From contig NW_005202176.1 in NCBI RefSeq assembly GCF_000372725.1, positions 42,240-106,239 on the forward strand: a DNA stretch of 64,000 nt. The letters run 5' to 3'. Origin of the DNA: Emiliania huxleyi CCMP1516 (taxonomy: Eukaryota). Positions within the stretch are counted from its first letter, which is position 1; every line of letters starts with the position of its first letter. Positions 15,887 through 64,000 of this stretch are shown in pieces. Both the position numbers and the translations under genes were made by a program. A model generated the notes under the pieces. The model ran no database searches. It had not been told where the DNA came from and saw only the letters and a list, made by a program, of their open reading frames with translations.

Positions 15887-17625
15887 ATGTCCGACGCCGT
15901 GCTAAATTTCTCGGACTGGCTCGGCATGCTCCACGATGCGGCCGCAAAAGGCGCCGCAGACGATGCCTCGGTTCGCGAGACGGTCAACTCGATGGAAATG
16001 CTGGTTCGGTCGAGCCTCGACGAGGCACTCGCCGGCATCTGCTCTCTCTGCTTCCCGGCGGCGGCCGACGGCGGCGGTGGCGGGGATGGCGGCCTGTACG
16101 CGCTGCTGCGTGCCTCACTCCAGGGCGACACGCAGCTGAAGAACCTCGTCGACCTGCGGTGCGAGGTGCTCCGCTTCCTCGAGGTGCTGATTGAGGAGCA
16201 CGTGCTCGAGCGGAACCTCGAGCGGAACCTCGGCGTGCACATCCTCGCCATCTTCGACGCGTGCACCCTCACCTTCCGCAAGGAGCGCTCGAACAAGGTG
16301 CGCGAGCTCTGTTTCCACCCGCTCGTCTACTGCCTCGACCTGCGGGACAAGTGCCCCGAGCGGCACGCGCTCGCCGACCGGATCTTCGGCTCCTCGATGC
16401 GCGACAAGATCCGCAACCCCGCGCTCGTCGACCAGCTCTGGAACCACCTCTCTTCCTCGCCGTCTGCCTCCACGCCCACCCTGCGCGGCGGCTGCTTCAA
16501 GCTGCTCGGCACCGTCGCCCGCCGCTTCCCGGTCGAGACGTCGGTCGACAAGCGGTTCGAGGTGCGGCACCCGACGTCGCTCTACCACCGCGCGATGAAG
16601 ACGCTGCAGGCCCAGACCGACTCGGCCGCGCCAAAGCTGCCCGAGGTTGCCGGCGCCCTCTCCGGCCTCGACGGCCTCCTCATCGACGCAGAGCTGAAGC
16701 CTGCAGACGTCGAGCTCGTGTTCGAGGTGGTGCTCAAGTGTCTCTCGGTGGACCTCGACGAGGTGAAGCGGTACACGATGCCTCGCGCCGCGCTGACCTG
16801 CCTCGGGAACAACGTCCCCGTCTTCGCCGCCCAGACGCCCGCACTCGTCGACGGCGAGCCCGCGCCAAGCGCCTCGGCGTGAGGGCTCGGGCGGCCTGCC
16901 TCGCAGCTTCCGCGGAGCCTCACCTGGTAGGCGAGCTGGTGGAAGGGCCTAGGCTGGCGGACTCGCTGCTGCTGCGGAGGGCGGCGGACCTCTGGCCGCC
17001 CCTCAAGCGCCTCGCCTCGCACTCGAACCAGTTCCTCCGCCCAAGGAGGGGGCCGCGTGCTGTGAGCAGCGCCTCTCTTCACAGCTGCAGCCGTGTGAAC
17101 AGGTACCTGCGCCCCCTCGCGGACGGCGTGCTGCGCGAGGTGCTGCACGCCCTCGCAGGCGAGCTCGCCGCTCGCAGCGAGGCGGCAAGGCGCAGGCGGC
17201 GTCTCTGCTCACGGCTGTGTTCACGGCTGTGTGCGTGAGCAGGCCAGCTCGCCGCCGCCTACGAGGCAGGAGGGGCGCTGCGCGACGGAGCCGTGGCGAT
17301 GTACAACACGCTCCTGCGCGCGTTCCGCGAGATGGAGACTGCCGCGGAACGCGGCGAGGAGGGAGGGCGCGGCGAGGAGGGAGGGCGGGGCGAGGAGGGA
17401 GGGAGCGGCGGCGCGACTCGGCCGGCGGCGGCGCAGACGCTGCGGATCGGCGGGATCGTGCGGCTGCGGAGCGAGCTGTCGCCCGCCGTGGCGGCTCTGA
17501 GCGGCGTGGAGAAGGCCGGAGAGCAGCTGCGAGGCAACCGCCGCACGCCCGCAGCGGAGAGACAACTCACTAACTCGCTCACTCACTCACTCACACTCAC
17601 TCACTCACACACACACACACACGCG

Positions 17626-17700
<75 letters not shown>

Positions 17701-20700
17701 CTGCCTCCCGCCCCGCCCGCAGACCTCTGCCAGTTTGCGGCCCGCTTCTTCGCGCCGCACGCGCAGCCGCGCTCGGCTGAGGCAGGGCAGACCCTCTCCG
17801 GCCGAGCGTTCGAGCTCCCAACTTCCGAGGTGTGAACAGCGCTTCTTCACATCACTTGCTGTGAATAGGCCGAGCGTTCGAGCTCCCAACTTCCGAGGTG
17901 TGAACAGCGCTTCTTCACATCACTTGCTGTGAATAGGCCGAGCGTTCGAGCTGCCCAACTTCCTCGAGGCGTTCGCGCTGCTGCTGCCCCACGCGCCGAC
18001 CGGCACCGCGGGCCTGCTCGAGACACTGCACGAGCTGCTCTACCTGCTGCACGAGTACTACGGCGTCCTGCAAAAGAAGCACCGCGCGCACGCCGCCGCC
18101 GCCACACAGCTGCTCTTCTCCGCCCTCGCCGGCCGCGGCGACGAGCTCGACCTCCTCCTCGGCCGGCTTGTCTACCCCGCCCTCACGCTCGCAATCGACT
18201 CCATCCCCGACGTCGCCGCCGGCAGCGGCTCCGCCGGCAGCGGCGTCGCCTCTTCGGCTGACGACGGCGGCGGCGAGGACGGCGGCGGCGGGGGCGGGGG
18301 CGGCGGCGGCGGCGTTGTCCACCTCGCAACGTATCTGTGGGTGCCCGTCCTCGACCCACTCTTGCGCCCGCCGGAGCGGTTCGAGGGGCAGGCGCGGCGG
18401 CGCGGAGAGAAGAAGTACGCCAAGGCGGCGGGCGGGTGGCGCGGCAGGGCGGGCGAGGGCGCCGCAGCCGCGGGTCGAGAGGAGACGTGCGCGCAGACGC
18501 TCGAGCACGTGCTCAACGCTCTGACTCGCATGATCGGTACGCTCGACGTGAGCGCCATCGCGGCCGCGGAGGAGGAGGAGGAGGAGGAGGCGCCCCTGGA
18601 TTCCGCTCCCGCTCCTATCGCCGACGCCGCCGACGCCGCCGACGCCGCCGACGCCGCCGACGCCGCCGACGACGGCACGGAAGGGCTGCTTGCTCCCATG
18701 GGCGATGGCGCCATCAAGCAGTCCAAGAGCGGCGACGTCGCGGTCTTCCTCAAGCTCGTTCACTTTTGCGAGGCGCTGCTGCCGGCGCTGCGGCCGAGCT
18801 TGCTGCACCGGTGGCTGCACGTCCTGCTGATGGACCTCGTCACCAGGGCCTCGCGCGCGCCGCACGTCTCGGGCTTCGCGAAGCTTCTCCGCACGCTGCT
18901 CCAGACGTGCGCACGCTGCAGCTACTTCGACCCGCCCGCCACCTCACCCGGGACGAGCGACGCCGCACCAGCCGCCGCCTCCGAGGCCGCCGAGGCCCGG
19001 GCGGTCGCAGGCTCGGCAGACTGCAACCGCGAGCGGTGCTACAGCATGCTGCGCGCCTACCTCGTCTCGCTGCTGGCTCGAGCGCGGCGGCTCAAGGACG
19101 AGCTCTTCGCGGCGGTGGTCAACCTGCTGCTCGCCGCGCCGCTGCGCTTTGTCGGGGAGCAGCTTCGCCGGCCGAGCCCACCGCTGGTGGAGCTGCTCCG
19201 GCACGCGCTCGCCCTCGGCCACGCCTACCTGCCGCTCGCCCTGACGGCGCTCAGCGCGCTCGAGAAGTGGATGGCCGAGCTGCAGCCGCTCCTTCAGCCC
19301 CACTTGCCCGCGCTGCTGCCCGCGCTGCGCGAGTACCTTACCGTCGACGCATCGGAGACGGCCGTCGCAACGGCGCGCGTCGGGGGCGCGCTCGGCGACA
19401 AGGTTGGCCGGCGGATGCTCGAGCGGACCGGCAACCGGCGGAAGCGGCGGTCGCGCGAGCAGCACAGCGAGGAGGAGCGGCTCCAGGCGCGCGTCGTGCA
19501 GCTGCTCGGGCGGGTGGGGGGGGAGGTGGTCCTGCTCGTGCAGCCCGGGGGCGGGGGCGGGGGCGGGGGCGGGGGCGGGGGCGGGGGCGCGCGGTGGGAC
19601 CTTGAGGAGCGCGTGGCGTGGGACGTCCCTCTCGAGGAGGAGAGGGACCTGAGCGTCCACCTCGACACGATCCTGCCCCGCGTGCTCGAGCTCGCGACCT
19701 CGTCGCTGCAGTACCGCGAGAAGGTCGCCGCGTGCGAGCTGCTCGAGGCCAGCGTCAAGCTCTGCGTCGGCATCAATGCGAACGCGCCCGCCGGCAACGC
19801 GGCCGCCGCTGACTTCGGAGCAATCAACCGGCGGCTCTACCCGGCGCTACTGCGGCTGGCCACCGACGCCGACGGCTTTGTGCGCCGTCTCTTCGAGCCG
19901 CTCACGCTGCAGATCATCCACTGGATCGTCAACCCGCAGCGCGCCGCCGCGGCGGACTCGATGACGATGCTCGACGCGTGCGTCGCCGCGACGGGCGACA
20001 CGGAGCACGCGGGGCTGCGCGAGTTTGGCGCGCGCTGCCTGGGCGAGTTTGTGGCCTACTCGATCAAGCACAAGAGCAAGACGAGCAGTCGCTCGCCGCA
20101 CGCGGTCCGGTCGCTCCTCGTGCGGCTCTACGCCCTCGCGCGCCACCCGGACGGGCTGCAGCGCCTCTCCTTCGCCTTCGCCATCGGCGCGTGCTACAGG
20201 CAGCTGCGCGAGGACACCGACTCGCTCGACGAGTCTCTGCTCGAGCTGATCCACAACACGCTCCTCGCGCTGCGCCTCGCGCAGGACGACGCGCCCGCGC
20301 TCGGCACCGCCGACCAGCTGTGCGGCGTCCTCGCCCACCTCAAGAAGATGCTGCTCCGCACCGCGGACAGGCTGCGCCGGGCCAACCCGCGCCGGCCGAT
20401 GTACAAGGCAGGGCTCGACGGGCCCGAGGGCCGCGCGCCAACGGCCACACTCCCGGCGCGGAGGAGTGAAACGCGCTCACCACGTTGCCCCCCGAACGGC
20501 AGGCTTCGCTCGCTACCTCCTCGCGCAGAGTGTGACGCCGCACGCGCGTGCTCGCCTGGAGAGCAGCCGCCTCTTCGAGGAGGTGTGCGCGCTCCTCGCG
20601 GAGGGGCAGGCAGTCCGGCCCGCCGCCGCGTCGTCCCGATGGGTCGCCAGCGCGCTCGCCTCGGCGACGGTGCCGCGGCTCCCGGTCGTCGAGCGCCTCG

Positions 20701-23700
20701 CAGCCGCCCCGTGGCGCCAGCTCGCCGCCGGTGCCTGCGGCTCTCGCCCTCGCGAACCCCCTCGTCGCAGTGTTCGAGCCCCGAGGCGCTGTCCTGTAGG
20801 CCCGCCCGCCGGCGGCCGCGAGCTCGCGCCGTGGCTGGTCGAGGCGCAGGCGGCGCTCGACGCGACGTTCTGGTCGCTCAAGCAGGGCCACGCGCCCTAC
20901 TCGGCGCTGCTACGGCCGGGCGGCGAGCTGCACGCGGCACTCGGCATCCTCAACGCAGTGCTGCGCGGCGCGCCGCCCTCGGCGCCACCCCTCGGCTGCG
21001 CGCTCTTCGAGGCGGCCGACGCGAGCGTTGCCGAGCCCGTCGCCCCGCTACGCGGCGCCTTGCTCTCCGCGCTGCGGTTCGTCAAGGAGCTCCAGCGGCA
21101 GGCGGCGCACACGGAGCTGCGGCTGCAGCAGCCGCTGCTCCACGTCGACGAGCCGGCGGCGCGCGATTGCGCCCTCCTCGCCGCGCTCGCGCCGGCGCGG
21201 CTGGGTTTCGAGCTCGGTGTTGTGGCGGCGCCCTACCGCCGGGTGCGCCAGCTCGCTTGCGAGGTGTGTCCCGGCCCGGCCCGCCTCTTGCTCCCGCCAC
21301 CCCTCCCGTTGGCCCCGGTCGCGCTTTCCGCCCCCGCGCATTGGGCCGAGGCCGCGCTCGGCCGTGCAGGTGTGCATGCGCAGCCACGCTCGCGACGCGG
21401 CGGCGTTTGTCGGCGCCGTGCAGCGACTGGTGGGCGCGCCGCTCGAAGCCCTTACGACGGCGGAGCTCGGGCGTCGCGACGGCTCCGGCGACACTCTGTC
21501 CCAACAGGCCCTGGCCGACGGGCTGCTGCACCTCCGCAGCGTTGGCCGTGCGGCAGCCGAGGCTTCGCTGCCCCGCGATGCGAAGTCTTACGCCGCGGCG
21601 CTCGCCGGTCGCGTACTCCAAGCGCCCGCGTCGCTGCGGCCGCTGGAGCAGCCGCTCCTGGAGACGTGCTTTGAGCTCGCCGTCGATCTCGGCCACTCGC
21701 CGCTCTCTCTGCTCCGGTCGATCGACGAGTCGTGCGCGGGGCGGCTCTTCTTCCAGCGCTTCCGCGCCAAAGTCGTCAGCTGCCTCATGGACGTGCCGGC
21801 CGATGGCGTCGAGCAGGCGGTCGATTGCATCATCGCAGCGGCGAGTGGGAGAAACGACCTGCCGGGCGCGCCGCTCTGGCGGCTGCTGCTCGTGTGGGTC
21901 GAGCAGCTCGAGAGGCGCCGCGACAAGCCGTCCGAGCCTCTCGTGCGCGCGATCGACGCGCGCCTCCCGCCCCTCTTGTCGCGGCCAGCGTGGCCGGACC
22001 CGGCTCGCACCGACGGGATGCTCGCCCTCGCGCGGCGGCTCATCGGGCTGGGCGCGCACCTGGTGCTGCTCGCCCCGGGAGGGAGCTGCTTGCTCGACGG
22101 GCTGCTCTGCCTGCTGCGCGCCGACAACGGCCTGCCGACTGCCGACCGGCGGCGCGCTGTGGTGGAGGTCTTCAAGCTGCTGCCGCAGCTGCTGAGGTGG
22201 CTCCGGCCGTCGGGTGCTTCGGCGGGGCGCCTCGGGGCGCTGGTTTGCGCGGTGCGGGCTGTGTTGGACAACGAGGTGCCGTTGAGCTTCAGCGAGCTGA
22301 CTCCCGCCCGGCGGCACGAGGTGCAGGAGCTGCTGCGGCCGGTCCTCGACGCCGTCGCCGACCCGCTCGTGCGGTCGCGCGAGCTGCTGCTTACCGTCCT
22401 CCGGCTCGAGGCGGTGCGCGAGCCGCAGCTCGGAGCCGGCCACGCAGAGGCCGCCGCAGCGGGTGCTGGTGGCGAGGCCCGCGGCGCGAGGAACGGCCAG
22501 CGCGAGGCGGTGCGCGCCGCCGTGCGCGACATGGTCCGCGCGGTGGTCGCAAAGGCGCCGTCGGGCGGTGGCGGCGCTGCGGGCGTCAGCGCGCCGGAGC
22601 TGTGGGCGCTGTGCGTCGATCGCGTCTGCGGGCCGGCCGACCCCGGCAGTGGCGGTGCGGACTGGCAGGAGAAGATGCTCCTGCTCGAGTGGGTCTCGGT
22701 GCCGCTCTGCGAGGAGATGGCCTCCGCCGAGAGCCTCACCGAGCTCGTGGCCGCCACCATGCCGGCGCTCGCGTCTCTCTGGAGCGAGACCGACTGGCCG
22801 AGCCGGCTGCCCGCGCCGGAGGACGCGCTGTCCGCCGCGCTGGTGCGGCGGCGTGCCGCCTTCGAGTGGATCGGCATGCTGATCGCCCGCGTGCCAAAGT
22901 CGTCCTTCGAGCCCGGCGGCAGGCTGCTCGAGGCGGCGGGCGCGAGCGGGCTGCCCGACCTCAAGAAGCTCTTGATTGAGCAGTGTGGCACGGCGGCCAA
23001 GGAGAGGCTCCCTCTGTCGCGGGAGCCCACGCCTCGCGTGGCCGCGCTCAAGCGGCTGCTCCACACCGCGGCGTACGGCGGGTACGTCAACCTGATCGTG
23101 CACACGCAGTCCAAGCCAGAGGTCGTCTCAAAGCTCCTCTTCAACTGGAAGAAGCTGTGGGAGAATGCCGCGCCGACCGCGGCCTTCAGACTGGCGCAGA
23201 CCCCGGACCACCCCACCGAGCGTGGCTCGAGCCTCGCCCGTCGGCCGGGGGCGCCCCGCGCGACGACTCGCGGCGGCGGCGGCGGCGGCGGCTATCTGCC
23301 GTCGCAAGCGCTGATGTCCAGCTCCCTGTCGCAGGGCGCGGACGACCTTGGCTCCGGCGGCGGCGGCGGCGATCCCATGGCCGCCGCGCCGCACGCACTC
23401 GGCCGCGCGCACACGCAGAGCTCTCAGGCCCACTCCCAGTCCCAGAGCTCCGACGGCGACGCGCCCGACGGCCGGCCGGCACAGCGCGGGCCGCAGCAGC
23501 CGGAGGAGGGGGAGTGGCAGCGGGAGCAGCAGCGGGAGCGGGAGCGGGAGCAGCTCTTCGCCGACGACCCGGAGCGTGTCGGCGAGCTCGCCTCCGCCAC
23601 GCTCGAGATGGACGCCCTCAACAAGGAGCCGCTGGTGCAGCTGCTGCTGCGCGCCGTCGACCAGGTGAGGCAGCGTGGCCTCGAGGCGCGGGGGGAGGGC

Positions 23701-25579
23701 GGCATGCCGGTGTGGATGGGCCGGCTGCTCGACACGCTCTCCAGCAGCTCCGCGACGTACACGACCCGGCTGCTCGTCGCGAGGCTCGTCTACGACCTCC
23801 GCAACTTGCCGCTCGAGCCGCTCGAGCCGGCAGGGGGGGAGGCCGCCTCGCCGGCCCCGGGCACGAAGAGGCTCTTTGCCGACCACGCCCGCCGGTGGTA
23901 CAAGCCGCTCGCGCGGCTGGTGCTCGAGAGCCTCCACGCCAACGGCTGCTTCCACTACCTCGCGCACGACCTGCTCCAGCTGATGGGCAGCTGGCCCGCC
24001 GAGGCGGTGGACGAGGCGGACGGCGAGCTGCACGCGCTGCTGGGCCACGTGCTGGAGAAAGGGATGCTGCTCTGCAACGACAAGCGAGGGCCCGTCCTGG
24101 CCGAGAACGTGCGCACGCTCAAGCTGCTGCTCGGCCGCTGGGCCCCGCGGCTCGGCGCCAAGCTGCCGCTGCGCCGCCTCCTCATCCTCAAGCAGCTCAA
24201 GGCGCGCAGCAAGGGGGACGAGGCCAGGGAGGTGCAGTGGCGCAAGGCGGCGCTCCACCTCCTCAACGCGCTGCTCGCCAACCACCTCCCTCTCGCAGAC
24301 GACGAGGCCGCCACGACCATCCCCGGCGGCCACTGGACGCGCCTCATGCCGCCCGGCAGCCCCGCGCTCGCCAACGCCCCGCCCGCGGCCAGCGACGCGT
24401 ACACGCCCGTGGGGCCGACCGAGCTGCTCGACGCGCTGCTGAGCTGCGTCAAGCACGCGCGCAAGGCGGTGTACGACCCGGCCGCCACCGTGCTCGGCCA
24501 GGCGCTCGCGAGCCTGGGCGGCTCTGCGGCGGCGGACAAGCTGCCCGCCTGCGAGGAGAACGTCTTCAAGTACCTGTCGGAGCTGAGCATGTCCGACTAC
24601 ACGCAGGCGGGCACCAGCCGGCTGCTCGTGCTGCTCGACCACCTCTCGGAGGGGTACCCGCGCCTGCTCGAGCTGCGCGGCCGCCTGCTGGCCGTGTGGG
24701 CTCGCAGCAAGCTCCTCGAGGTCCACGGCGATGGGCGCGCAAACGTGCTGCGCTGCATGACGCACGCCGCCGCGCGCGAGCGCAGCGGCGCCGGCCAGGA
24801 GGAGCCCGCGCCGCTGCGAGGCGGCCCCGAGGGCGTGCCGCCGGTGACGACGAGCGTGACGAAGGAGGTGTGGGAGGGGCTGCTCTCGCAGCAGCAGCCC
24901 GAGGTGCAGCACGCCTCGCTCCGCCTCCTCCTCGAGCTCGCGCAGCACCGCCCCCTCGACAAGCTCTGGCCGCTGCTGCCCGCCCTCGACGCCGCTCTCG
25001 CGCGCCACCGAGCGGTGGACTGCCGCGCCCTCTACCACGAGCTGCTCATCCGGCTGCGCGAACGCGCAGCGGAGCCCGGCGCCGCGGTTCCCGACGCGGC
25101 GAGTGAGACCCTGCTCCGCTCGGGGCTGCTCGTCGGGCTGTGCGACCCCGACGAGACGAGGAGAGAGGCGATGCTCGGCTACTGGCACGGCCAGCTGCCG
25201 CGGAGCATGGCCGCCCGGCTCGTCGCGTGCTTTGAGACCCTCTACGCGCCGGCGGTGGAGGCGCAGTGGCTGCACATCTCGACGCTGCTCCTCCTGCAGC
25301 TGGTGCACGGGGCGCCCAACCGGCACAAGACCATCTTCGTCAAGACGCTCCTCGACACGAGCAGCTTCCAGCCCGTCGGCAACCTGGCGCCCACCCGAGG
25401 GAGCGCCTCGCTCGCCATGCTGCCCTGGGGCCACGAGTTCTTCTCGCAGAGCCAGCCCGCCTCGCAGGACGCGGGCGAGGGCGGCCCGCTCCGCGCGACC
25501 CAGTCCCAGCTCTACTCGCAGACGCAGACGCAGGACCAGCTCGGCGGCGTCCCCGCCACCTACAGCTCGCAGGCGGCCG

Positions 25580-25621
<42 letters not shown>

Positions 25622-28600
25622 TGCAGCGGCGGCGTGCGGCTCTGCCGCCGGTGCCCGCCTTCGGTATGGGCAGCAGCCAAGCCGCGATGTCTGCTGGCGC
25701 GGGCAGCTCGCAGGAGCCGGACGGCGAGCGGCCGGTGCGCGACCGGCGCAGACGCAACCTCGTGGCGGCCAACGCCAGGCGCAGCAACGCACAGAGCGGC
25801 GCTGCGCGGCAGCGGAAGGTGCAGCTGATGCGCACGTACCGGGCGGGCGAGGTGCCAGACATTGCGCTGTGCGCGCTCGACTTCGTCGCGCCGCTGCAGT
25901 CGCTCGCGCGGCACGACCCGGTGGTCGCCAAGAACGCGCTCGTTCACCTCTACCGCGCCGTCCGACAGCAGCGCCTCGAAGGCGCGGGGGCGGACCAGCT
26001 GGTGCGGCCGCGCCTGCGGGCGTGGGCGGCGGTACCACACGCCGTCTCGACGTCTACGCTTCCTCCGCTGTAGGCGAGGCTCCACGCCGGCGTGGCTGCT
26101 CTGCTCACGTCGCGCGCGGGAGGCACCGCCTTCGTCGGCTGCCTGCACGAGCTCGCTCTGACCGAGGAGGGGGCGGGTGGGGCTGTGCCCGCTGATGTGA
26201 GGCACCCGCTGAGCCCGCTCGCTCCCCCCGCGTAGGACGACACGTCGGGCTGGCTCCGCCCGGAGGACGTGAGCGAGTCGGCGGAGCGCACCGGCACGCT
26301 GCACTCGGCGGCGCGGCTCATCGAGCGCCACATCGTCGCGGCGGCGCCCGCAGCTCGCCCTCAGAAGCGAGCCCGCGACCTCGCCTCGGCTGCGGCTTCG
26401 GGCGGCGAGCGCGAGGTGCGCGTCCTGCTGATGGAGATCTACCGCCAGCTCGCCGACGAGGATGTTGTGCGCGGCGCGGCGGCCGCGAGCACTCCCGCCC
26501 TTGCCGAGGGAGGCGCCTCTCCAGCTGTCGCCCTCCCGCTGTAGGCTTGGCGGCGGAGGTTGCCGGCGTGACCGAGTTGCGCGACGCGCTCTCCGCCGAG
26601 GCGCGCGGCGACTCCCTCGAGGCGCTGCGGCTGTTCCAGAGGGCGAGCGGCAGCCTGGGCGAGTCCGGCTCCGCGTCGGCGTCGGAAGAGCTGGAGCTCG
26701 CCCAGCGAGGGCGGCGCGCGTGCCTGCTCCGACTCGGGCGGTGGGGCGAGCTGCGCGCGGCGACGGAGGCGCTGGTGCAGCCGGGCGGTGACGGGCTCGG
26801 GACATGGCGCGAGAGCGCGCACGAGCCGTGGGTGAGGATGCTGCTGGTGAGCCGGGCAAAGGAGGGCGCCGCGGGGCAGGGCTGGAGGAGCTGGGTCGAG
26901 GAGCGGGCGGAGGGGGCGGCGGGCGGGGCCGGCGAGGCGTGTGCTCCTCACCCCGTCCGCGACAGCAGCTTGTTGCTCGATGCCGGCCTCGGCGCTCTCC
27001 TCGTCCTCGATCGGCTCGCCGCCGGCAGCGAGGACGGCGCTCGGTCGCTCCTGCCCGGCTGCGTCCAGGCCTTTGTCAGCCGCTGGGCCGCGCTGCACCC
27101 GCGCGCGACGATGGTTCGACTCAAGGAGCTGGAGCAGCTGCAGCTGCTCGCCGAGGTGTGGACAGCGCTGCTTCACACCTCTTGCTGTGAACAGGAGCTG
27201 GAACAGCTGCAGCTGCTCGCCGAGGCCAACGAGCTGCTCGACGTGCTGAAGCGACCGCTGCTCGCAGCGGCGGGTACCGGCCGCTGGGTCGCGACTGACG
27301 CCGTCGCCGCGCTCGCGCGCACGTGGTCGGGCCGCTACCCGAGCAGCTCCCAGCACGGCGCCGCGGTTTGGGACGACGTGGTGAGCAGCCGCGCGCTGCT
27401 CTTCTCCGTGCTGGAGCGCCGCCTCAACGAGGCGCTCGACGCCGTCGACTTCGACGACGAGGACGAGCGCGCGGCCATCCGTCAAGGCTCGCTCGGCGCC
27501 GCCAAGAGGTGCATCGCCGAGTCGCACGAGCGCGCCGCGCGCGCGCTCCGCATGCAAGGAGACTTCGAGCCCGCGAAGGGCCACCTGCTCGCGAGCATGG
27601 CCCTCCGCAAGGCGGACCCGAAGTGCTTCGGGCCGGTGAGCGTGCAGTTCCAGGCCGGCCTCCTCCAGCACACGGTCGCTAAGGCTCGCGCCAGCCGCAA
27701 CTCGGGCGAGCTGCTGCAGATCTGGCAACAGGTGCGCCGGCCGGATGGGCCCCGCAACGCCAGTCTGGCCCTCCCCACCCCTGAAGCGCTCTCTTCGACT
27801 GCAGGGGGCGAAGCTACACGACATGTACGCATCCAACCCGCCGGAGGAGCGGTGCGAGCTGGCCGAGCTTCAGGCAGAGGTTGTGCAACTGATGCTCGAC
27901 GGCGGCGATGCCGACGAGGGCGAGCGCCTGCTAACAGAGGTCATCGAGAGGCTGCGCTCGCTCCTCGACTCGCCCCTCGCCTCGCCCGCCGCCCTTGCGC
28001 CCGCGCGGCTCAAGCTCGTCGACCTCTGCTCCGCCTCCCTCAAGCGCGGGCACGAGACACGCGGCGTCGACCTCGCCCGCGTCGCTGTCGCCGAGGTTGT
28101 GCGTGCGATGGCCGGCGGCTCGCTCGCGGCACGCGACCGCTTCCTCACGGTGGTAGGCCCTAACCTGACCCCAAGTCTGACCTAACCCTAACCCTAGGCG
28201 CGGGACCGCCTGCTCACGGTGCTCGCGCTGCTGCGCGGCCGCGCGGAGACGTGGGAGGAGACGGGCGCCCAGCTGCTGACTCCGCCCGCCTGGATGATGC
28301 TCAAGTGGACATGCCAGCTCCTCGCGCTGCTCAACGAGCCGCACGGCGAGTGCGTCGCGCCCCTCCTCGAGCGGCTGGCGGCTGCCTACCCGGCTGCCGT
28401 CTACCACCCCTTCCAGCTCAGCAAGGAGTCGGTCTCGCGCAAGCCACGCCTCGCGCCGCGCGTCGCCGCCACGGTGCGAGCCATGAGCGCCGTGCTGCAC
28501 AGCCCGCGGCTCGAGGCCCTGGCGGCCGCGTTCGAGGACCTCACGCACCCCGAGCTGAGGTACAAGGACCTGCTCGAGACGCTGACCGACCTGCTCAAGG

Positions 28601-30722
28601 AAGGGCGGGTCGAGGAGGCGCGCGCCAGCTACGTCGAGCTCACCCGCTGGCTCCGCGACCCGAAGCGCGGCGGCTTCCTCGCTGACTTTGCCAAGGCCAA
28701 GGTGGGCAGCCAAGGCGAGCGCACCCTCCAGAAGCTCGACGGTCTGTGCGGCGTCGACGGGCAGCACCTCGGTCGCTTCGTGGGGAGCGGGGGCGGACCG
28801 CCGACCCTGCAGAGGGAGCTCAATCGGGTCGGCATGGGCTGGAGGAAGCTCGAGGAGGTGTCGCAGGTGTGGGTCAAGGGCAACAAGCAGAGATCCACCC
28901 GGCTCGAGTCGTACTCGCCCCTGCTCGCAAAGTACCACCGCGCCGACGAGGCGGGCGGCGACCCGCTCGAGGCGCTCGAGCTGCCGGGGCAGTACGATGG
29001 GGACGCGCCGCCACTGGTCGACCAGCACGCGGCGGCAGACAGCTTTGACGCCGAGCTGCTCGTGATGGCGTCGCTCCGCAAGCCCAAGCGGCTGACCGTC
29101 TACTGCTCGGACCAGCGCGAGCGGCGCTACCTGATCAAGGGCGGCGAGGACCTGCGGCAAGACCAGCGCATCCAGCAGATCTTTGCGGTGGTCAACACGG
29201 TGCTCGCAGCCGACGGACAGTGCGCGACGCGCGGCCTGGCGATGCGGACGTACAGCGTGCTGCCGCTCAACGAGCGGGTCGGCTTCATCGAGTGGATGGA
29301 CGGCACGCAGCCGCTCGGCAAGCTGATCGAGAAGGTTGCAAGGGTGAAGCACCGGGGTGGGCAAGATCCGATCAGTATGGCGGCGACCAAGTTCGCCGCC
29401 GCCTACCCCTTGGCCAGCAAAGGCCAGCTGCCGAGGTGGGCCAGCTGCAGCCGGAGAGACGCGGAGCAGCACCTCGCTGATGCGCACGCTCTGTTGCCGG
29501 CCGACCTCCTCTCGCGCGGCATCGAGTCGCTCTCCGTCGGTGCGCGCTCCCACACGAGATGCCGCAACCTAAACCTCCCGCACGTCGACATCCACGCTCG
29601 GCTCGCCTCACCCCCTCTCCCCCCCCCCCCCCCCCCACACACCACCACCCCCCTCCTCCTCCCTCCTCCTCCCTCCTCTGCAGGAGCCGAGTCGTTCCTC
29701 GCGACCCGCTCCTGCTTTGCGCGCTCCCTCGCCGTGGTGACCGTCGTCGGGCACCTCCTCGGCATCGGAGACCGCCACCTCGAGGTGCGGCTGTACCTTC
29801 TGCTTCTAGTGGTGGGTCACCCTAGTCCTTACCTGTACCTGTCACATGTGAACTAGAACTTCATGGTGGAGGAGGCGAGCGGCCGCGTCGTCGGCATCGA
29901 CTTTGGCCACGCGTTTGGCTCGGCGACCCACCAGCTGCCACAGCCGGAGCTGATGGGCGTGCGGCTCACTCGCCAGCTCACCTCCTTCCTCCGGCCGCTC
30001 GACTCGGGCGTGCTGCTCAAGGGGCACATGGTGCTCGTGCTGCGCACGCTGCGAGCCCAGCGCGACGAGCTCCTGCGCGTGATGGACGTGTTTGTCTCCG
30101 AGCCGAACGTCGATTGGGCGAAGCAGGCGCGCACACTCGCTCGTCGCCTCGCTCGTCGCCTCGCCGCCACGCCACCCCACCCGGCCCCTCCCTCCTATCC
30201 CTCCTACGCCCGCTCTCGCCTCGCCCAGCGCCCCACCCAACGCCGTTTTCGGCAGGCGCGCAAGCTGGGCGAGGCGCAGCTGGCGAGCGTGCTCGAGCCG
30301 TCCGAAGGTGAGAGCCAGGCGTCGACGGTGGTGGCGAGCGAGGGCGGCGGCGCCGCCGACGGCGACAGGGACGCGGCGTGGGCGCGCAACCGGCTGGCCT
30401 CAGTGGTGTCCAAGCTGAGCGGAGGTAACGCCGCCCACATCACCGAGGCTGAGCTGCGGCTGAACCCGGTGGCCGCCAAGCCCGCCACCTTCGACCGGCT
30501 GGTCGAGATTGTACGCGGACCGGCAGACAGCTTGCGCCGCCAACTGCCCGCCACCGCTCTGACCCCGGAGCAGCAGGCGCGCTGCGGGCCTCGCTACCGC
30601 CCCCCGCCACGCACACGCTGACCTGGCTAGCCCCCTCGCCATAGGTTGACGTGCTGCTCGAGCTTGCCACCGATCCGAACGTGCTGGGCCGCACGTACCA
30701 CGGGTGGAAGCCGTGGCTGTGA
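15887..30722 (+). CDS. PRKDC: DNA-dependent protein kinase catalytic subunit (PIKK family), multi-exon
   Basis: HEAT-like N-terminus; LDTILPRVLELA...KVAACELL; YRAGEVPDI; kinase motifs KGGEDLRQDQRIQQIF, GIGDRHL, GIDFGHAFGSAT..LP.PELM..RLTRQ; FATC end ATDPNVLGRTYHGWKPWL*; more than 15 short introns. Confidence 0.95.
17031..17102 (+). other. Intron (72 nt, GT-AG) carrying the CTTCAC..TGTGAACAG module
   Basis: Removal restores the frame (NQ|YLRPLADG); its 5' part resembles the downstream exon start. Confidence 0.75.
17801..17936 (+). other. Intron made of two identical 68-nt units (exon-start copy + module), GC-AG
   Basis: gccgagcgttcgagctcccaacttccgag+gtgtgaacagcgcttcttcacatcacttgctgtgaatag twice; exon resumes gccgagcgttcgagctgcccaacttcctcgag (RAFELPNFLEAF). 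Confidence 0.85.
27126..27194 (+). other. Intron or insertion: 30-nt exon duplication + 39-nt module (GA donor if the whole 69 nt is spliced)
   Basis: gagctggagcagctgcagctgctcgccgag is repeated with one mismatch on each side of gtgtggacagcgctgcttcacacctcttgctgtgaacag. Confidence 0.8.
28129..28197 (+). other. Intron (69 nt, GC-AG): 24-nt exon-start copy + telomere-like CCCTAA tract
   Basis: gcacgcgaccgcttcctcacggtg vs exon gcgcgggaccgcctgctcacggtg; ends cctaaccctaaccctag; contains an in-frame stop, so must be spliced. Confidence 0.85.
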
Positions 30723-31704: not shown

Positions 31705-34700
31705 CTACCCGCCGTAGCAGTACGTTTTGAGGCCCATTGCGCAGAGATTTGCATTCATCACGGCAACGTTGTTTCGGTTCGACAGGACGTTTGCACCAGG
31801 AGGCGGAGGTGGAGGCGGTACCCCCGGCGGGATTGGAGGCGGCGGAGGTGTTGGCTCGCCTGGAGGCGGAGGTGTTGGCGCGCCTCCAAGCGGGGACGGT
31901 GGTGGGAGTGTGGTAGCTGCCGGCGGGGTGGCGGCTGGCGGCGGGGCGGCAGCTGCCCCTGTCCTGCTCCATGGGAGCCAGCTCCATGAGCCGCTCGGTG
32001 CGGTCGTTGGCGGTGCCAGTGCCGGCGGCAGTGTAGGTGGCAGTGGCGTGGGTGGCGCCACCGGAGGTGCCGGTGGGAGTGGCGGTGGCAGTGGAGCCGA
32101 TGGCGACGGCGGCTGTGCGGCCGCCGTGGCTCGGGTCCGCACTGCCACCTCGTAGGTTGGCAACGCGGCGTTCACTGCTGCCTCGGCGGTCATGAAGGCT
32201 GCCTCGGCGGCGAGCGCCTGTTCACAGCTAAGGTGTGAAGAGATGCTGTGTGCAGCCTTGACGCCGGCCTGCGGCGGGGCGAGCACCGCCACACCCGCCG
32301 CCCTCTCGCGCCCCAAGGCCTTCGCCACCTCAATCTCGAGGGCGACGGAAGGCGGGGAGGAGGCCGCGGCCTTGGCCTCCGCCGCCAGAAGCGCCTTCTC
32401 CGCCGCCGCCTCCTCCGCCGTGGCGAGCGCTGTGGCGACCATCGCTACGGCGAGCACGGCGCGCTTCGCGTCGAACGCCGCAATTGGGTCTGCAATGCTC
32501 CCAAGAGGGACTGCCGGCGCCGGGGCGGGAGGCAGCTTCGGGAGCGGCTGCGACGCGGCTGCGGCCGCCGCCACAACCGCCTCGGCCTTGCCCGCCAGCT
32601 GCGCCTCGACGGCCATCACCTCCTGTTCCGCCGCTGTCAGCGCCCCAGCCGCGAGCTGCAGGCGCGACGCCCAGTTCGGGAGCCACGCCGGCAGCAAGTC
32701 CGCCTTGTACAGCGCGATCTCGGCCTCCCTCACCCGCCGGTGGGCCCCCATCAGCTTCGCCGGCAAGGCCAGAAGCTGCGCCGTCGCCAGCTGTCGCACC
32801 CGCTCAAGCTCTAGCGAGGCGGGACCAGCAGCGCCAGGCCCGCCGGCGGCACCGCCGTATGCATAGCCGGACGCTGCCTGCGGGGCGGTAGCTGCCGGCG
32901 GAGTGGCGGCTGGCGGCGGGGTGGCGGCTGGCGGCGGGGTGGCAGCTGCCCCTGTCCTGCTCCATGGGAGCCAGCTGCTCCATGAGCCGCTCGGTGCGGT
33001 CGTTGGCGGCGGGGGTTGGAAGGGCTGGCGGCGAGGAGGGCGCGCTGGCGGCGAGGGTGGAGAAAGAGCCCCCAGCGGAGCGGGCGGCGCGGGCGGGGGC
33101 TGCGGCGGCTCGGGAGGCGGCGGCGAGGGGCTGGGCGAAGGAATGGTGTACGGCGGAGGGGGCGACACCGGCGGAGGCGGCGGGGGCGGGGCAGAGGGCA
33201 GCGGCGGGCTCTGCGGCGGCGGGGAACTTGATGGCGGTTGGGAGGGCGGACGGAGTGGATGCGGGGAGGGTGGGTGCGCGGGCGGCGGCGGCGGAGGCGG
33301 CGGCGGCGGCGGCGGCAACGGCTCCCATCCCCAGAAGGATGGCGGCGAGGGTGGGGGCGGCGGCGGCGGGGGGGCGGATGGAGGGTGCGGTGGCAGGCCA
33401 GGAGGCGGCGGGGGTGGCGGGGCGGGAGGAGGGTGCGGCGGCGGCACGTCGGGAGGCTGCGGCGATGATGGCGGCACGGGCGGCGATGATGGCGGCACGG
33501 GCGGCGATGATGGCGGCAGGGGCGACGAGGGGGGGAGGTATGGCGGAGGTGGGGCCTCGGCGACAGATGGGGCGAAGAAGGAAGTCAACGCAGTTGCCAA
33601 ACTGTTCAGCCAGAAGGATGGCGGCGAGGGTGGGGGCGGCGGCGGCGGCGGCGGCAACGGCTCCCATCCCCCGAAGGATGGCGGCGAGGGTGGGGGCGGC
33701 GGCGGCGGGGGGGCGGATGGAGGGTGCGGTGGCAGGCCAGGAGGCTGCGGCGGGGGTGGCGGGGCGGGAGGAGGGCGCGGTGGCGGCACGTCGGGAGGCT
33801 GCGGCGATGATGGCGGCACGGGCGAGAGGGGCGGGCGGGGCGGGGCGGGAGGATCGAAGGGTGGCTGCTGCGGGGCGGGAGGAGGGTGCGGCGGCGGCAC
33901 GTCGGGAGGCTGCGCCTGCGGCGATGATGGCGGCAGTGGCGACGAGGGGGGGAGGTATGGCGGAGGTGGGGCCTCGGCGACAGATGGGGCGAAGAAGGAA
34001 GTCCACGCGGAGTCGACGGTGGGGCGAAGAAGGAAGTCCAAGAAGGTTTGCGGAGGGGACGGTGGCGGCGGCGGCGACTGAGGAGGCGACGATGGCGGCG
34101 GCGGCGACTGCGGAGGCGACGGCGGCGGCGGCGATTGCGGAGGGGACGTTGGCGGCGGCGACTGCGGAGGGGACGTTGGCGGCGGCGATTGCGGAGGCGA
34201 CGGTGGCGGCGGCAACGTATGCGGAGGCGACGGTGGCGGCGGCGTTTGCGGAGAGGGCGGTTGTGACGGCGGTGCTGAAGGTGGTGCTGGCGAGGACAGA
34301 CTGGCACTGGCCTGCAGCGTTTGAGGCGGCATTTGGCGGGCCCAGCATCCAAACGAGTCGATGCGCAGAGTGGCGTCTGGCAGAGCGTCGTAGAGAACGC
34401 AGCGGATTTTCGCGCGTTCTCGGAGGGCGGTAGTCTGGATACCCAGGCAAAGAGAATTGTTCGTGCATTTGGCCTTGCACCGATCCACGCCGCTCAGGCC
34501 CCAAAACTCATCAATGACATACTCATAGCCAGACGAGACCTGGCCCGACGATCCCTTCTTGAACTTGCACGCGCCGACCGAGCTGGTGAGACGGCCCGGG
34601 GAGACAAACGACCCGGTGACGCCCGGGGAGAGAAGCGACCCTGTGACGCCCGCGCGACCACCAGCGCCCTTCGCAGCCTGAGCGGGAGGAGAGGGAGGAG

Positions 34701-56114: not shown

Positions 56115-56799
56115 TCAGTCCCGCCGGCGTCGGTCGCGGTCGCGGCTCCGCGAGCGCGAGCGCCGCCGCTCCTTCCGGTCGCGGCGGTCCCTCTCCCTGT
56201 CCCGGTCCCTATCCCTGTCCCGGGAGCGGGACCTGCGCTCCCGCCGGTCGCGGTCCGCTCCTCTCGGCGGAGGGCCTTGTGGGGCAGGGGCCGACCGCGC
56301 AGGGGGGCCGGGAGGGGGGCCGACGGCGACGCTCCACGTCCTCTCCTTGTCGTGCAGCCGGACGCCCATCCCTCGAAGCTGGTCGCGCAGCTGGTCCGCC
56401 GTCTGGAAGTCGCGGTTCAGCTTTGCGCGGTGCCTCGCCGACAGGAGCTTCTCGATCTGCTCGGCGTCGCACGGCGCGCCGACGTCGCCGACGCGCTGGT
56501 AGTCATGGCCGCCTCCGCCCCCGCGCGGCCCTCCGCCGCCGCCGCCGCCGCCGCCGCGCGGCCCTCCGCCCCCTCCTCCCGCCTCGTATGCGGGCATCGC
56601 CTCCTTGCGCCGCCGCTTGTTCCAGAGGTGCGAGACGGACTGCGAGAAGTCGACCTAAGGTGAGGTAAGGTAAACTTCTCCACACACACGAGGTGGTGGG
56701 GCAAGGGGGGGCGACCCTCGCGTCTCCACGTCTAACGACACGAGCGCCGCGGCATTCAAAGTGCAAGGCCCAGTGCGCGTGGGTGAGCGGTGTGTGTGT

Positions 56800-56872
<73 letters not shown>

Positions 56873-58035
56873 GTCGACCTTGATGCGGCGGTCGTCGATG
56901 AGAGCGCCGTCCATCTTGAAGTAGGCCTGCGTGCACGCCTCCTCCGTCTCAAACTCGATGAAGGCGTAGTTGAGCGAGTCGCCTGAAGCCGGCGCGGGGG
57001 CGGGGTCGGCGGCGCTGGCATCGCGGCGTCCGAGTCCCCTCGGCGGCTACGGCGCCCGTCTTGAAGTCGCGGATCACCTGCTCACAGCAGACGGCGTGAA
57101 GCGCGCCTCCTCACCGCAGCTCGCCGCCCCGCCGCCGCGGCGTCGCCTCGCACGAGGTGATTGCGCCGAAGCGGCCAAAGATGATGTCGAGGTCGTCGTC
57201 CTCTGTCACCGGGTTGAGCTTGCACACAAAGAGCACATTCTTGGGCGGCTCGACGTCCGCGTCGGGGAGGTCGCCCAGCATCTCTAGCACCTCCGCGCGC
57301 GACTTGGCCGCCTTGACGCGCAGCGCCTCGTCCTGCGCCGCCTATCCACACGCTCGTGCGCCGGTGGCGAGGGGGACGCCTCGACGCTGCGCCGCCGCCG
57401 CCCTGCGCGACCGGGTCGTCCTCGCCGTCGCCGCCCAGCTCCTCGTCGTCGGCGAGGCGCTCGCGGTCCTGCTGCCGGTGCAGCTCCGACGGCGGCGGAG
57501 ACGCGTCCGGCACCTCGAGCCCCGGCGGGTCGTCAAACGGGTCGTCGAGCACAATCGTGTGCCTCACGCGGATGTTGCGGAAGGGGCGGCCGTCCGGGTC
57601 GCAGTAGGCGGCGCCGATCTTGCGCGCCACGTCGAGCCCCTCCGCCACCTCGCCAAAAATTGTGTACTTGTCGTCGAGGTGCTCCTGCGCGTGGTCGCCC
57701 ACCGTGATGAAGAACTGCGAGCCGTTGGTGTTGGGGCCGGACGAGGCCATCGAGACGACGCCGGCGCGGTCGTGGCGGAGGGAGCGGCGGAACTCGTCCT
57801 CGAAGAAGCGCGCCTGATCGCCGTACAGCAGCCCGTAGAGGGAGGAGCCGCCCGTGCCCGAGCCGGTCGGGTCGCCGGTCTGGATCAGCGCGCCGGCCTG
57901 CACGTTGTGGAAGAGGCAGTGGTTGTAGTACTTGACCTTGCACAGCTTGAGGAAGGACTTGCACGCGATGGGCGCCTCCTCCGTCCGCAGGTCTATCACG
58001 ATGTCGCCGACGCTGGTCTCTAGGAGCACGCTCAT
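56115..58035 (-). CDS. PPIL4: Cyclophilin-RRM protein (PPIL4/CYP59) with RS/RD tail; introns 57342-57411, 57078-57146, 56983-57055, 56655-56878
   Basis: [90 protein letters not shown]. Confidence 0.95.
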
Positions 58036-61300: not shown

Positions 61301-61500
61301 TGTGCATGCAACTACAGCTCGAGCTGGTGTGTGCAGTGTGTGCATGGATGCAACTTCTCGAGTGTCCGTGCGTGCGATCTGGGCGACTGGGCCCCGGGGA
61401 TGTGCTTTTGTGTAGTGCATGCACACAGAGTCTCAGAACTCTCTCAGAACGAGGCCGAGGAGAGCGATGAGTCAGAGGATGAAACAGCAGGAGAGAGAAC

Positions 61501-61690
61501 GACGATAACGGGAAGAACGCGAGGTGGCATGAAGGTCGCTGCGAGAATTGGCGAGGGAAGACTCTGCGAAGAGAGATAGGAAGAGGCAGACGCCCAAGGG
61601 TGGGCGACGGCTAGCACCCCACTCCCCTCCTTAAAATCCCTGTGTGGTGGCGGCGTGCCGTCCTCCCAGATCCCTCCCTTGGCTTCTCTT
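61501..61690 (-). repeat. Hairpin repeat copy D (core 61593-61683) plus extension shared with copy A
   Basis: Reverse complement continues ..cccttgggcgtctgcctcttcctatctctcttcgcag..ccttcatgccacctcgcg, as at 3931-4008. Confidence 0.85.
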
Positions 61691-62580
61691 TTTTTGACAC
61701 GACAAGGGCGCAGCCTGGGAGAGAGATTTTTGAAAACCAACAAGAAATCACGCCTCTCACAGTGATTTGGGCTCGGCAGCTTGTCAGCCCTTCGAGTCAG
61801 CCCTCAGCCGAAGCTGGGGCCGGTCCCGTAGCCGAGAGAGCCCGCGTCGATGAGTTCGACGTGGTCGGGGGGCCTTGCGGAGAGGCCAGCGAGTTGGCGA
61901 TCGCTGTACTTCATGGGGGTCATCAAGTGACCGCGACTGACAAGCCAGAGGTCGATACTCTGGACGACCCATTGGATGCCACGAATGCCTGAAGGAGAGG
62001 GAGGCGAGGCCAGAGGCAGACTCAGCTGCTCTCGGGTGATCTCGCTTTGGGAGAGAGAGACAGACAGAGAGATTTTTTTTCGCTTTGGTGGCTGAAGGCC
62101 CGATGGTCCTGTCATTCGCGTTCCGAGTCGTGGGGGTAGAAGATTGCGGGGGGGGGGGGGGGGGGTCGTGTCAGCACTTCCTTGAAGTACAGCGGACCGC
62201 CAGGCTCGCCGGCAGCATCCGCAGGGAGGCAGCATATCAGGCACCAGTCTTCTGGATGGAGAGCTTGACACGAGCCACAGCCGCGGTTCTTTGAGAGACT
62301 GAGAGAGAGCTTTCGGTTCTTTCGGACTGGCGGAGACAAAAGAAAAGTTTTGAGTTGTTCATACCGTCGTCCCCCTGCCTGTGTCCCTGATCGTCCTTCC
62401 AAGCACCTGCTTTTATTTCTACTCTCGTGAGCTGTGAACAGACGCACTTGCCTTCGGGGGCAAGTACCCAAATCCGCTAGGTTGGGCGTGCTTTCACAGC
62501 ATCGCGCGAGTATTTTATTTCCCGTCGTGCAGCACTGTCGACGGCGTCCACTGTGACCGCAACCCGACCTGGATACACAT

Positions 62581-64000
62581 ATGCCCTCCTTCGGCGGCGG
62601 CACTCGGCGCCGCCTCGCTGCCTTCCCAGGCGCCAGTGTTCCTCGCGGCGCCGGCACGCGCCAGCTCCTGACCACCGTGATTGCTCTCTTGGGCGTCGCG
62701 CTCCTCCTCCTCCAGGCGTCCTCCGTTTTCACGCCTAGGAATCCTACACGGATTGCACCCGAGCCCTCACCCCGCGTGGAAGCAAAGCACGGATTGCATC
62801 CTCGCTTTCCTCGCGTCCTCGTGCCGATAGCGGCGAACCGCACCGGCAACTCATCGCCGGGCGCACCAGGACCGGCGGTCGTCCTCGGCGGGCCTTACCT
62901 CGTCCTCGGCGTCGCGACCGCGCCGCGCAACACGGGCCACCGGCAGTGGATCCGCGAGACGTGGATGAGCCTGCCCAACATCGCTCGAGGCATCGACGAC
63001 GACGCGACGCTCGCGGAGCTCAAGGCCCTCGGGGCCACGGCGGTGCGCGCATCGGCCTCGCCAACCTCCAGCGTGCGGACCTTCTTCCTCGTCGGAGCGG
63101 CGGTCGCCGCCGCAGACCTCGCCGAGGAGCAGGCGCGGGAGAGGGACATCGTCGGGGTGGACGCGCGGGAGACGAAGCCGCCGGGCGAGAAGATGTTTGC
63201 CTTCTTCCAGCTCTGCGCGAGAGCCTTTGCCCGCACCTCCCGATGGTGCATCAAGACAGGTGTGCCCCCGCCTCCGCCTCCCCCTCACTCGCCTCCTCCT
63301 CCTCTTCCGCCGCCGCCGCCTCCGCCTCTGCATCCTCCGCCTCCCCCCCTCCCCCCCCCCCCCTCCGGCCGTGGCCATGCAGCATGGCCTATCACTAAGT
63401 CGAGCATCGCCCGCTCGACAGATGACGACACGTACGTGCACTCGGTCCGACTCGAGCTCAACCTGCGAAGCCTGTGGGACTCGACGCCGCCGCAGGAGAC
63501 CTCCCCGCGGGCGGCGTCGCCGGCGGCGGCACCACCGGCGTCAGCCGGCGGCGGCGTGGCCGATCGCTCGACGGGCGGCGGCGCGGGCGGCGGCGCAGGC
63601 GGCGGCGCGGGCGGCGGCGCGGTGTACGTGTACGGCGGCGCGACGCTGTGGGCGTCGTACGTCAAGCGGTCCTTCCACGTGTGCGGGCACGGGATGGGCC
63701 CGATGATGGCGGCGGGCGCGTCCAGGACAGAGGGGTGCGCGGCGCAGGGGGCCGTCGGCCCCTTCCCGTATGCCGCGGGCGCGCTCGAGGTGCTGTCGAT
63801 GCCGCTGGCGCGCTGTGAACAGCGTCTCTTCACAGCACGCCGCTGTGAACAGGCACGCTCGAGGTGCTGTCGATGCCGCTGGCGCGCTGGGTCGTGTCTC
63901 AGCCGGCGGTGGTCGAGTTTGTGCGCCGCGCGCGCGGCAGCGGCGTCCCCTCAAAGTGGGACATCGGTGCGCGCGGGGGGGCGACATTGGGACTGGGGAA
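62581..64000 (+). CDS. GT31 (Galactosyl_T) beta-1,3-glycosyltransferase, type II membrane; runs off the window; introns 63260-63421 and 63779-63852
   Basis: TM LLTTVIALLGVALLLL; LGVATAP....RQWIRETW; FFLVG; IKT|DDDTYVH; FPYAAG|TLEVLS; absent from the supplied ORF track. Confidence 0.88.
   Translation, partial: MPSFGGGTRRRLAAFPGASVPRGAGTRQLLTTVIALLGVALLLLQASSVFTPRNPTRIAPEPSPRVEAKHGLHPRFPRVLVPIAANRTGNSSPGAPGPAVVLGGPYLVLGVATAPRNTGHRQWIRETWMSLPNIARGIDDDATLAELKALGATAVRASASPTSSVRTFFLVGAAVAAADLAEEQARERDIVGVDARETKPPGEKMFAFFQLCARAFARTSRWCIKTGVPPPPPPPHSPPPPLPPPPPPPLHPPPPPLPPPPSGRGHAAWPITKSSIARSTDDDTYVHSVRLELNLRSLWDSTPPQETSPRAASPAAAPPASAGGGVADRSTGGGAGGGAGGGAGGGAVYVYGGATLWASYVKRSFHVCGHGMGPMMAAGASRTEGCAAQGAVGPFPYAAGALEVLSMPLARCEQRLFTARRCEQARSRCCRCRWRAGSCLSRRWSSLCAARAAAASPQSGTSVRAGGRHWDWG

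Follow-up and report, generated by a model that had tools for sequence, protein, structure and literature searches.

A short sequence module that recurs in a 64,000-nucleotide (nt) stretch of the Emiliania huxleyi CCMP1516 genome (contig NW_005202176.1, positions 42,240 to 106,239 of the forward strand; hereafter the window) forms the 3′ part of a family of introns in which the 5′ portion usually duplicates the start of the exon that follows (exon 2). We find that this is a real intron-generating family, that it belongs to a broader process in which a duplication of the target is joined to a filler, and, with a probability of about 0.5, that its introns arise by 3′-first templated insertion at a staggered nick, the 3′ halves of existing introns being copied. 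An earlier note on this DNA had proposed a family without terminal inverted repeats (TIRs) in which the module provides the acceptor and a long target-site duplication (TSD) provides the donor. That proposal held up; indeed, the donors defined by RNA at 17801 and 32286 fall on the first base of the duplicate.

The 39-nt module is present in eight copies in the window, and all eight lie within 1–2 nt of the positions that had been given for them. The 9-mer TGTGAACAG occurs eight times (0.24 expected) and GCTGTGAACAG five times (0.04 expected), and a position weight matrix of the module found no match in Markov-shuffled controls of 120 kb and 2 × 400 kb. Three 11-nt arms make up the module in the order +, −, +: a left arm G(C/G)TGTGAACAG, a middle arm CTCTTCACACC and a right arm GCTGTGAAYAG, the last preceded by a variable 4-nt loop. 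Because of this build the module can equally be described as 1.3 copies of a 29-nt unit, with an internal direct repeat of 11 nt and a repeat period of 29. The inverted arms are imperfect and internal, the ends of an insert being the target copy and YAG. Neither TIRs nor a poly(A) or simple-repeat 3′ tail was found on the inserts, which end in YAG, and at one locus (L083) a 29-nt tandem tail is conceivable. Linked variants define subfamilies of the module (of 66 tests, three pairs had p < 0.0006). No copy of the module was present in viral contigs, searched with two patterns, or in prokaryote genomes; the window, which is 67% GC, was matched by marine metagenomes, metatranscriptomes and culture runs.

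The middle arm is able to pair with the left or the right one, as had been pointed out, but the module folds no better than its shuffles in nine of ten sequences (z −1.23 to +1.41), the copy at 17205–17242 alone reaching a z-score of −2.29. Compensatory changes on both sides of the stem are rare and covariation is slight, and a stable conserved hairpin is thus unsupported. The loop equals the four bases left of the module at 4 of 67 sites (1.1 expected; p = 0.015). Copying of the loop from the target gave one signal (p = 0.0007) in eight tests and failed both position by position and as inheritance. Elsewhere in the window, multi-copy DNA at 62420–62515 contains a strongly folding branched hairpin (z −4.85) whose closing stem includes the 11-mer of the module's right arm; this hairpin had no Rfam match and no copy in the metagenome loci.

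The module copies in the window lie in four genes, as the earlier note had it: five in a gene for DNA-PKcs and the others in a proline-rich gene, in one for a cyclophilin-RRM protein and in one at the window's end. The host genes and module-bearing introns are as follows.

15887..30722, + strand: host gene for DNA-PKcs, with four module-bearing introns and five modules (Pfam DNA-PKcs_N, CC1-2, CC3, CC5 and PI3_PI4_kinase; frame parse).
17031..17102, + strand: 72-nt intron with a GT donor after A, a decayed duplicate of the start of exon 2 (10 of the first 12 nt match) and a decayed module at 17061–17102 (proposed from the frame parse).
17159..17242, + strand: 84-nt intron with a GC donor, an imperfect duplicate of ~24 nt of the start of exon 2 and a loose module at 17205–17242 (proposed by eye from duplicate and frame).
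17801..17936, + strand: 136-nt GC-AG intron made of two 68-nt units, a 29-nt duplicate with the module 17830–17868 and a duplicate with the module 17898–17936 (RNA joint).
27126..27194, + strand: candidate 69-nt intron with a GA donor, a 30-nt duplicate (one mismatch) and the module 27156–27194 (sequence).
32218..32286, − strand: 69-nt GT-AG intron in the proline-rich gene, with a partly decayed duplicate at the donor and the module 32218–32255 (RNA joint).
56115..58035, − strand: host gene for a cyclophilin-RRM protein (PPIL4-like; Pfam Pro_isomerase; homologs P0001–P0006).
57078..57146, − strand: 69-nt GC-AG intron with a weak duplicate remnant and a decayed module at 57078–57116 (RNA joint 57076>57146 in run X12).
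63779..63852, + strand: candidate 74-nt intron in the gene at the window's end, with a GC donor, a ~35-nt duplicate (one mismatch) and the module 63813–63852 (sequence and frame).

Splicing is backed by RNA for three of these seven introns, the other four being proposed from reading frame and duplication. In particular, the joint 17799>17936 was present in run X11 only and absent from the DNA runs X9 and X4; since 136 nt are removed whole, the copies at 17830 and 17898 constitute one intron. It follows that the count of at least seven introns put forward earlier is reached only when the loose copy at 17205 is included, and that the module does not always end at a used acceptor: that of 17830–17868 is not at the acceptor used in the X11 product, although the introns demonstrated by RNA do end at a module. 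The joint 32216>32286 was found in X11 and X13, which are from two studies, and was absent from DNA; the same intron is also present in the metagenome locus L038, which is the same locus. Removal of 57078..57146, where most of the duplicate has been lost and the donor lies near its weak remnant, yields a peptide colinear with homologs. At 27194 there was no RNA joint among the matches listed, and the candidate intron there, if retained, is in frame and free of stops. Likewise, the matches listed contained no joint at 63852, and one metatranscriptome contig (X14, depth 4) crosses 63786–63889 unspliced. DNA contigs carry the 27126, 32218 and 57078 introns intact, those of X9 and X4 doing so at 27126. 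Many other introns of the module-bearing genes are spliced without a module. (Note that the automatic frame parse placed the 17159..17242 intron differently, at 17185–17247.)

Three further observations concern these genes. The DNA contigs of X9 and X4 both stop exactly at 17934, two bases within the acceptor of the tandem intron, and this shared end may mark an allele. In the PPIL4-like gene a micro-exon of ~24 nt lies between two RNA-supported introns (56980–57146). The gene richest in module introns encodes DNA-PKcs, a break-repair kinase, an enrichment that probably merely reflects gene length; protein searches returned no DNA-PKcs homologs.

A metagenome scan listed at least 119 loci, 97 of them high in GC, and a profile scan of the metagenome loci together with the window gave at least 119 non-redundant sites, of which 115 had enough flank for analysis. 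A narrower set of 89 sites was what remained of 127 metagenome matches after subtraction of 22 from low-GC loci (for the most part a single gut-bacterial coding sequence that recurs), 11 that were redundant and 5 at edges. The sample is skewed toward assembled, gene-rich contigs. An upstream copy of the start of exon 2 was found at 88 of the 115 sites (mean 26.6 nt, range 14–42 nt); several of the remaining 27 carry shorter or decayed copies, and at most a handful have no duplicate at all. In the 89-site set the duplication score exceeded the 99th percentile of mismatched pairs at 73 sites. The reconstructed introns measure 68.8 ± 3.6 nt (range 59–78). At 109 of 115 sites the first two bases of exon 2 are GC, GT or GA, and the last base of exon 1 is G at 77 of 88. 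The similarity between introns is not spread over the whole intron or both of its ends, the 5′ ~30 nt being specific to each locus.

Reading frames are consistent with removal of the whole unit. Intron lengths are uniform modulo 3 (23, 29 and 36 sites), so that a shorter piece of constant length cannot be the intron in general, and frame agrees with whole-unit removal at 35 of 54 informative sites, as against 9 of 54 for removal of the module's internal 37-nt GT..AG piece. The two duplicates differ by substitutions that are strand-symmetric, at a divergence of 5.6–7.4% compared with ~4% in the module, the latter figure being biased low by the search pattern; these values leave error-prone synthesis of the duplicate unneeded. 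Sense orientation, which the earlier note had described as strict, applies to all seven introns in the window; more widely, a codon model that was right on 151 of 180 control windows scored 62 of 82 loci as sense. Of 27 further modules in 170 kb of flanks (compared with 8 in the 64-kb window), 23 are on the strand of the seed module. These data fit an orientation that is mostly sense and fall short of proving a strict one. Assuming a genome of ~168 Mb, the family may number on the order of 10^4.

The two ends of the inserts differ in character. The 3′ end is fixed and never varies beyond YAG (YAG|G), whereas the 5′ junction is variable and shows microhomology or foreign inserts. Flush 5′ junctions share a mean of 2.6 nt of extra match compared with 0.53 by chance (23 of 60 eligible sites; 0 of 5000 draws), 5′ junctions often carry on the 29-nt period, and at 12 of 88 sites there are 7–16 extra 5′ bases, in one case a second module unit. 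Such extras show no match above chance to flanks or target, templating from the flanks or from a later exon was rejected, and several resemble coding sequence by eye. Duplicate and extra bases together sum to 29.6 ± 3.5 nt. At L008, L035 and L052 the 5′ segment is almost wholly foreign. Longer inserts have no upstream sequence in common, the best sharing being 8 nt among 2926 pairs. A module is in tandem with or adjacent to another at 11 of 115 sites. L083 holds two 29-nt units with different loops inside one insert; in L088 the left hairpin is inverted, and in L035 and L060 two modules are separated by a foreign segment of 28–29 nt. Of the three duplicates in L022, the one in the middle combines sequence of the other two, as slippage predicts.

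The module appears to be one filler among many behind the same duplication plan. The 234 kb of metagenome loci and window were searched for G|G...YAG|G units of 55–120 nt with a duplicated start, and this search returned 61 module matches and 52 candidates with different fillers (in L001–L118 and the window), compared with none in a shuffled 234-kb control. (Note that 21 mirror or module-related rows, 9 tandem rows and 10 repeat-unit rows were set aside before the 52 were counted, and that a few mirrors may remain.) The 52 have a median length of 71 nt and duplicates of 11–41 nt, and the anticorrelation between duplicate and filler lengths is partly due to the narrow span searched. In 21 of them the filler is a tandem repeat of 10 or 11 nt; the E. 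huxleyi genome paper is said to mention 10–11-bp repeats in introns. The rest are AT-rich, CCCTAA-like or members of a second fixed family, which stands behind a duplication at L024, L025 and L046 (all on the − strand) with lengths of 32, 59 and 66 nt and a common 3′ end, and which looks 5′-truncated. That the introns with other fillers share a length of ~70 nt indicates that the total is what is constant, the ~30-nt duplicate of a module intron completing 69 nt. Two examples lie in the window, the first of which is the only RNA-confirmed intron among the other-filler candidates.

28129..28197, + strand: 69-nt GC-AG intron, a 24-nt duplicate followed by a CCCTAA-rich filler (RNA joint 28127>28197, in X11 and X13).
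56655..56878, − strand: other filler, a 9-nt exact duplicate followed by (CA)n (frame parse).

A fixed 3′ end, a ragged and microhomologous 5′ end and a duplication of variable length are together the marks of 3′-first templated synthesis at a staggered break. Moreover, a 3′ boundary at the acceptor, extra bases that are not shared and the existence of lineages point to existing introns, rather than one master, as templates. We envisage that the lower strand would be nicked at G^GY, and that its 3′ end would prime copying leftwards from the terminal AG of the template, namely the 3′ half of an existing module intron, likely as its excised RNA, an RNA template being slightly favoured. After 39–60 nt the new strand would jump back to the target 15–40 nt downstream by means of 1–6 nt of microhomology, thereby duplicating the intervening target stretch; copying beyond the module would leave foreign, coding-like bases of the parent intron, and two-unit inserts would result when synthesis primed again on the internal direct repeat of 11 nt. 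The upstream duplicate, now starting G|GC, G|GT or G|GA, would serve as donor, and the module would provide the acceptor and likely also, as the earlier note supposed, the branch point, here predicted to be the A at −20. With duplicate as donor and module as acceptor, splicing would restore the old mRNA exactly. Inserts of ~60–78 nt would then persist, filtered to G|GY donors and ~69 nt, and later slippage between the two duplicates would produce tandem arrays. The polymerase could be the reverse transcriptase (RT) of a retroelement, telomerase or a repair polymerase.

Several findings weigh against this proposal. No foreign 5′ segment matched another locus and no parent–child pair emerged, in what is a small sample; 20 of 82 sites scored antisense; the type of loop is not inherited together with the start of the target (p = 0.23); and the present data fit RNA and DNA templates alike. 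The DNA runs examined (two per site) showed no intron-less allele; the duplication itself implies an empty ancestral site. The 19+10 open reading frames (ORFs) of the window that were scanned had no RT match. In addition, plain target-primed reverse transcription (TPRT) accounts neither for the total of ~30 nt that target-copied and foreign bases make up nor for the great rarity of unspliceable copies, and an upper limit on length imposed by selection is not obvious because the 136-nt intron is spliced. That so few copies are unspliceable and that lengths are confined so narrowly suggests a coupling to transcription or splicing beyond selection.

Among other explanations, the module could be the 5′-truncated tail of a short interspersed nuclear element (SINE) or other non-LTR (long terminal repeat) element whose end consists of 29-nt tandem units. 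A few master RNAs would then have supplied the inserts by TPRT, an endonuclease making long staggered cuts. Insertion by TPRT characteristically leaves copies with a constant 3′ end, a truncated 5′ end that shows microhomology or extra bases, and a variable duplication, and long duplications occur in CRE/SLACS-type elements. The module inserts resemble this pattern in that their 3′ end is fixed while their 5′ end, with its microhomology, and their duplication vary; the continuation of the 29-nt period at many 5′ junctions, the two units of L083 and the three 5′ lengths of the second filler family speak for it as well. We nevertheless consider such an origin rather unlikely, because there is no poly(A), no RNA polymerase III head and no master that we could find, because longer inserts lack a common upstream sequence, and because each of the many unrelated fillers would require a master of its own; nor did the window contain an Rfam family at gathering score (sub-threshold matches occurred in eight loci). 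Nearly all copies, furthermore, are at usable splice sites. That last feature would be accounted for if whole ~69-nt introns were reverse-spliced at G|GY proto-splice sites and their 5′ part then replaced by target sequence in repair, as would the constant length of the 5′ segment and the loci at which it is almost wholly foreign. Reverse splicing into R-loops has been proposed for introners that lack a TSD (PMC10996645). Reverse splicing makes no long target duplication, however, yet most copies carry one, and the in-register replacement is ad hoc; we judge this route unlikely.

Generic repair of staggered double-strand breaks, the module being a common captured repeat later kept by selection, finds support in the many different fillers that share one plan and in the exon–intron direct repeats of Daphnia neointrons (PMC4202315). 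The Daphnia repeats are only 4–12 bp and their fillers mostly have no known source, whereas here one 39-nt filler occupies at least 119 sites with the same end and register, which makes this explanation improbable. A mini-element derived from a DNA transposon or LTR element, with a 25-nt hairpin and a 4-nt duplication, would come near the automated class given in PMC12130899, and could draw on the internal 11-nt imperfect inverted arms, the variable 4-nt loop and the slight excess of sites at which loop and left-flanking bases agree. The arms are not at the ends of the insert, the loop bases are not derived from the target and the true duplication is 14–42 nt and variable, a fact that by itself largely refutes the idea; we regard it as very improbable. 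Finally, the presence of a plausible branch point and acceptor might suggest a generic splicing signal that had converged in old introns. This is scarcely credible given near identity over 39 nt at unrelated loci, linked subfamily variants, a tie to duplications and absence from most introns of the same genes. The test that had been set for it, whether modules are equally common in introns without flanking duplications, came out against it: 45 of 50 perfect modules have a duplication beside them, and the share falls as the module decays (30 of 41, 11 of 19 and 2 of 5).

Several other features of the window deserve mention. Inverted repeats (83 nt, 87%) containing GTGAACAG bound ~8.8 kb at 42819–51594, within which lie a kinase gene and a 1228-amino-acid ORF (at 45185) with an RNase H match (PHROGs, E = 6e-6) and no RT match; since the inverted repeat also occurs in L072, its arms may represent two independent insertions of a dispersed repeat. 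A high-copy insertion of 600–730 nt at ~30860–31610 is missing from the X11, X9 and X4 contigs and from L038 and is therefore polymorphic. Very high-copy repeats at 58070–58800 and 61400–62350 (X8 contig depth >100,000) flank a multi-copy NHL-BTB gene, and at 1–2170 two near-identical 1.3-kb blocks beside assembly gaps suggest a local assembly duplication.

The family has probably been catalogued already, though not described. Supplementary Table 6 of PMC9860276 (2022) lists five Introner families in E. huxleyi CCMP1516, three of which (2, 4 and 5) are 37 nt long, with an average of 37.0 nt, 54–57% GC, mostly GT donors, 82–86% genic location, 476 copies and a TSD entered as 'N' or '?'. The module's internal GT-AG piece is likewise 37 nt and 55.0% GC, whereas RNA and frame indicate here an intron of ~69 nt whose donor comes from a duplication of 14–42 nt. 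Dataset S2 of PMC12130899 (2025; fam4/fam3) contains a 45-member fam4 with splice columns 113–150 (gt:45, ag:45), a 4-nt TSD and the class 'LTR/Unknown'; its 'TSD' copies are 30 columns apart, compared with a module repeat period of 29. It is probable that the published 37-nt families are this family with ends set wrongly. (Neither the 9-mer TGTGAACAG nor any sequence of these families was found in the supplements searched, a search that took in part of the PMC9860276 file and the PMC12130899 supplements other than 13–14.) In gene models that call the 37-nt GT-AG piece as the intron, the duplicate would remain part of the protein or the frame would be shifted. The listings of literature searches, which did not extend to the genome paper of E. 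huxleyi or the Introner paper of 2016, showed no description of long-duplication introns in haptophytes.

Like an Introner, the module is a similar sequence present at 119 or more sites, and RNA at three sites and reading frame at 35 of 54 informative ones indicate that the insert is spliced out, which restores the coding sequence. The TSD-recruiting Introners of the Symbiodinium, Micromonas and Aureococcus types have TSDs of 3–9 bp, often TIRs, and end-to-end similarity (PMC9860276), whereas here the duplication makes up ~40% of the intron, varies in length and is accompanied by no terminal repeats. As in the neointrons of Daphnia pulex (PMC4202315), an exon direct repeat stands at the far end of the intron with a filler beside it; repeats there are short and fillers largely unique, compared with 11–42 nt and recurring filler families here. 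The fungal introner-like elements of PMC10996645 are also short, non-coding, genic, TIR-less and hairpin-forming, but arrive as whole insertions without a TSD, whereas only the 3′ part is common here. A TIR DNA transposon or miniature inverted-repeat transposable element (MITE) would have terminal inverted repeats and a short fixed duplication of 2–10 bp, and an LTR element a TSD of 4–6 bp, in contrast to a duplication of 14–42 nt and a direct repeat that is internal and only 11 nt long. Thus the family acts like an Introner combined with staggered-break repair, and lacks the defining features of MITEs, SINEs, LTR elements and whole-intron introner-like elements.

The origin of new spliceosomal introns is still an open question, and half-intron copying, if true, would be a form of intron gain that needs no transposase. 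The module introns link two models that have been held separate, the spread of Introners and the repair of staggered breaks, and because the insertion site survives as a copy within every such intron, the site, the age (a duplicate divergence of ~6–7%) and the filler lineage of an insertion can be read from one genome. Our findings raise the possibility, which we put forward as doubtful, that introns give rise to new introns with no transposon involved. Excised introns would be reverse-copied from their free 3′ ends into staggered nicks in transcribed exons, the long duplication would create the donor, and each new intron would become a template in turn. Were this so, the module, the 10–11-nt repeats and the AT-rich and telomere-like fillers would represent rival lineages of intron 3′ halves, and much of the intron complement of this genome would have arisen by the copying of such halves.

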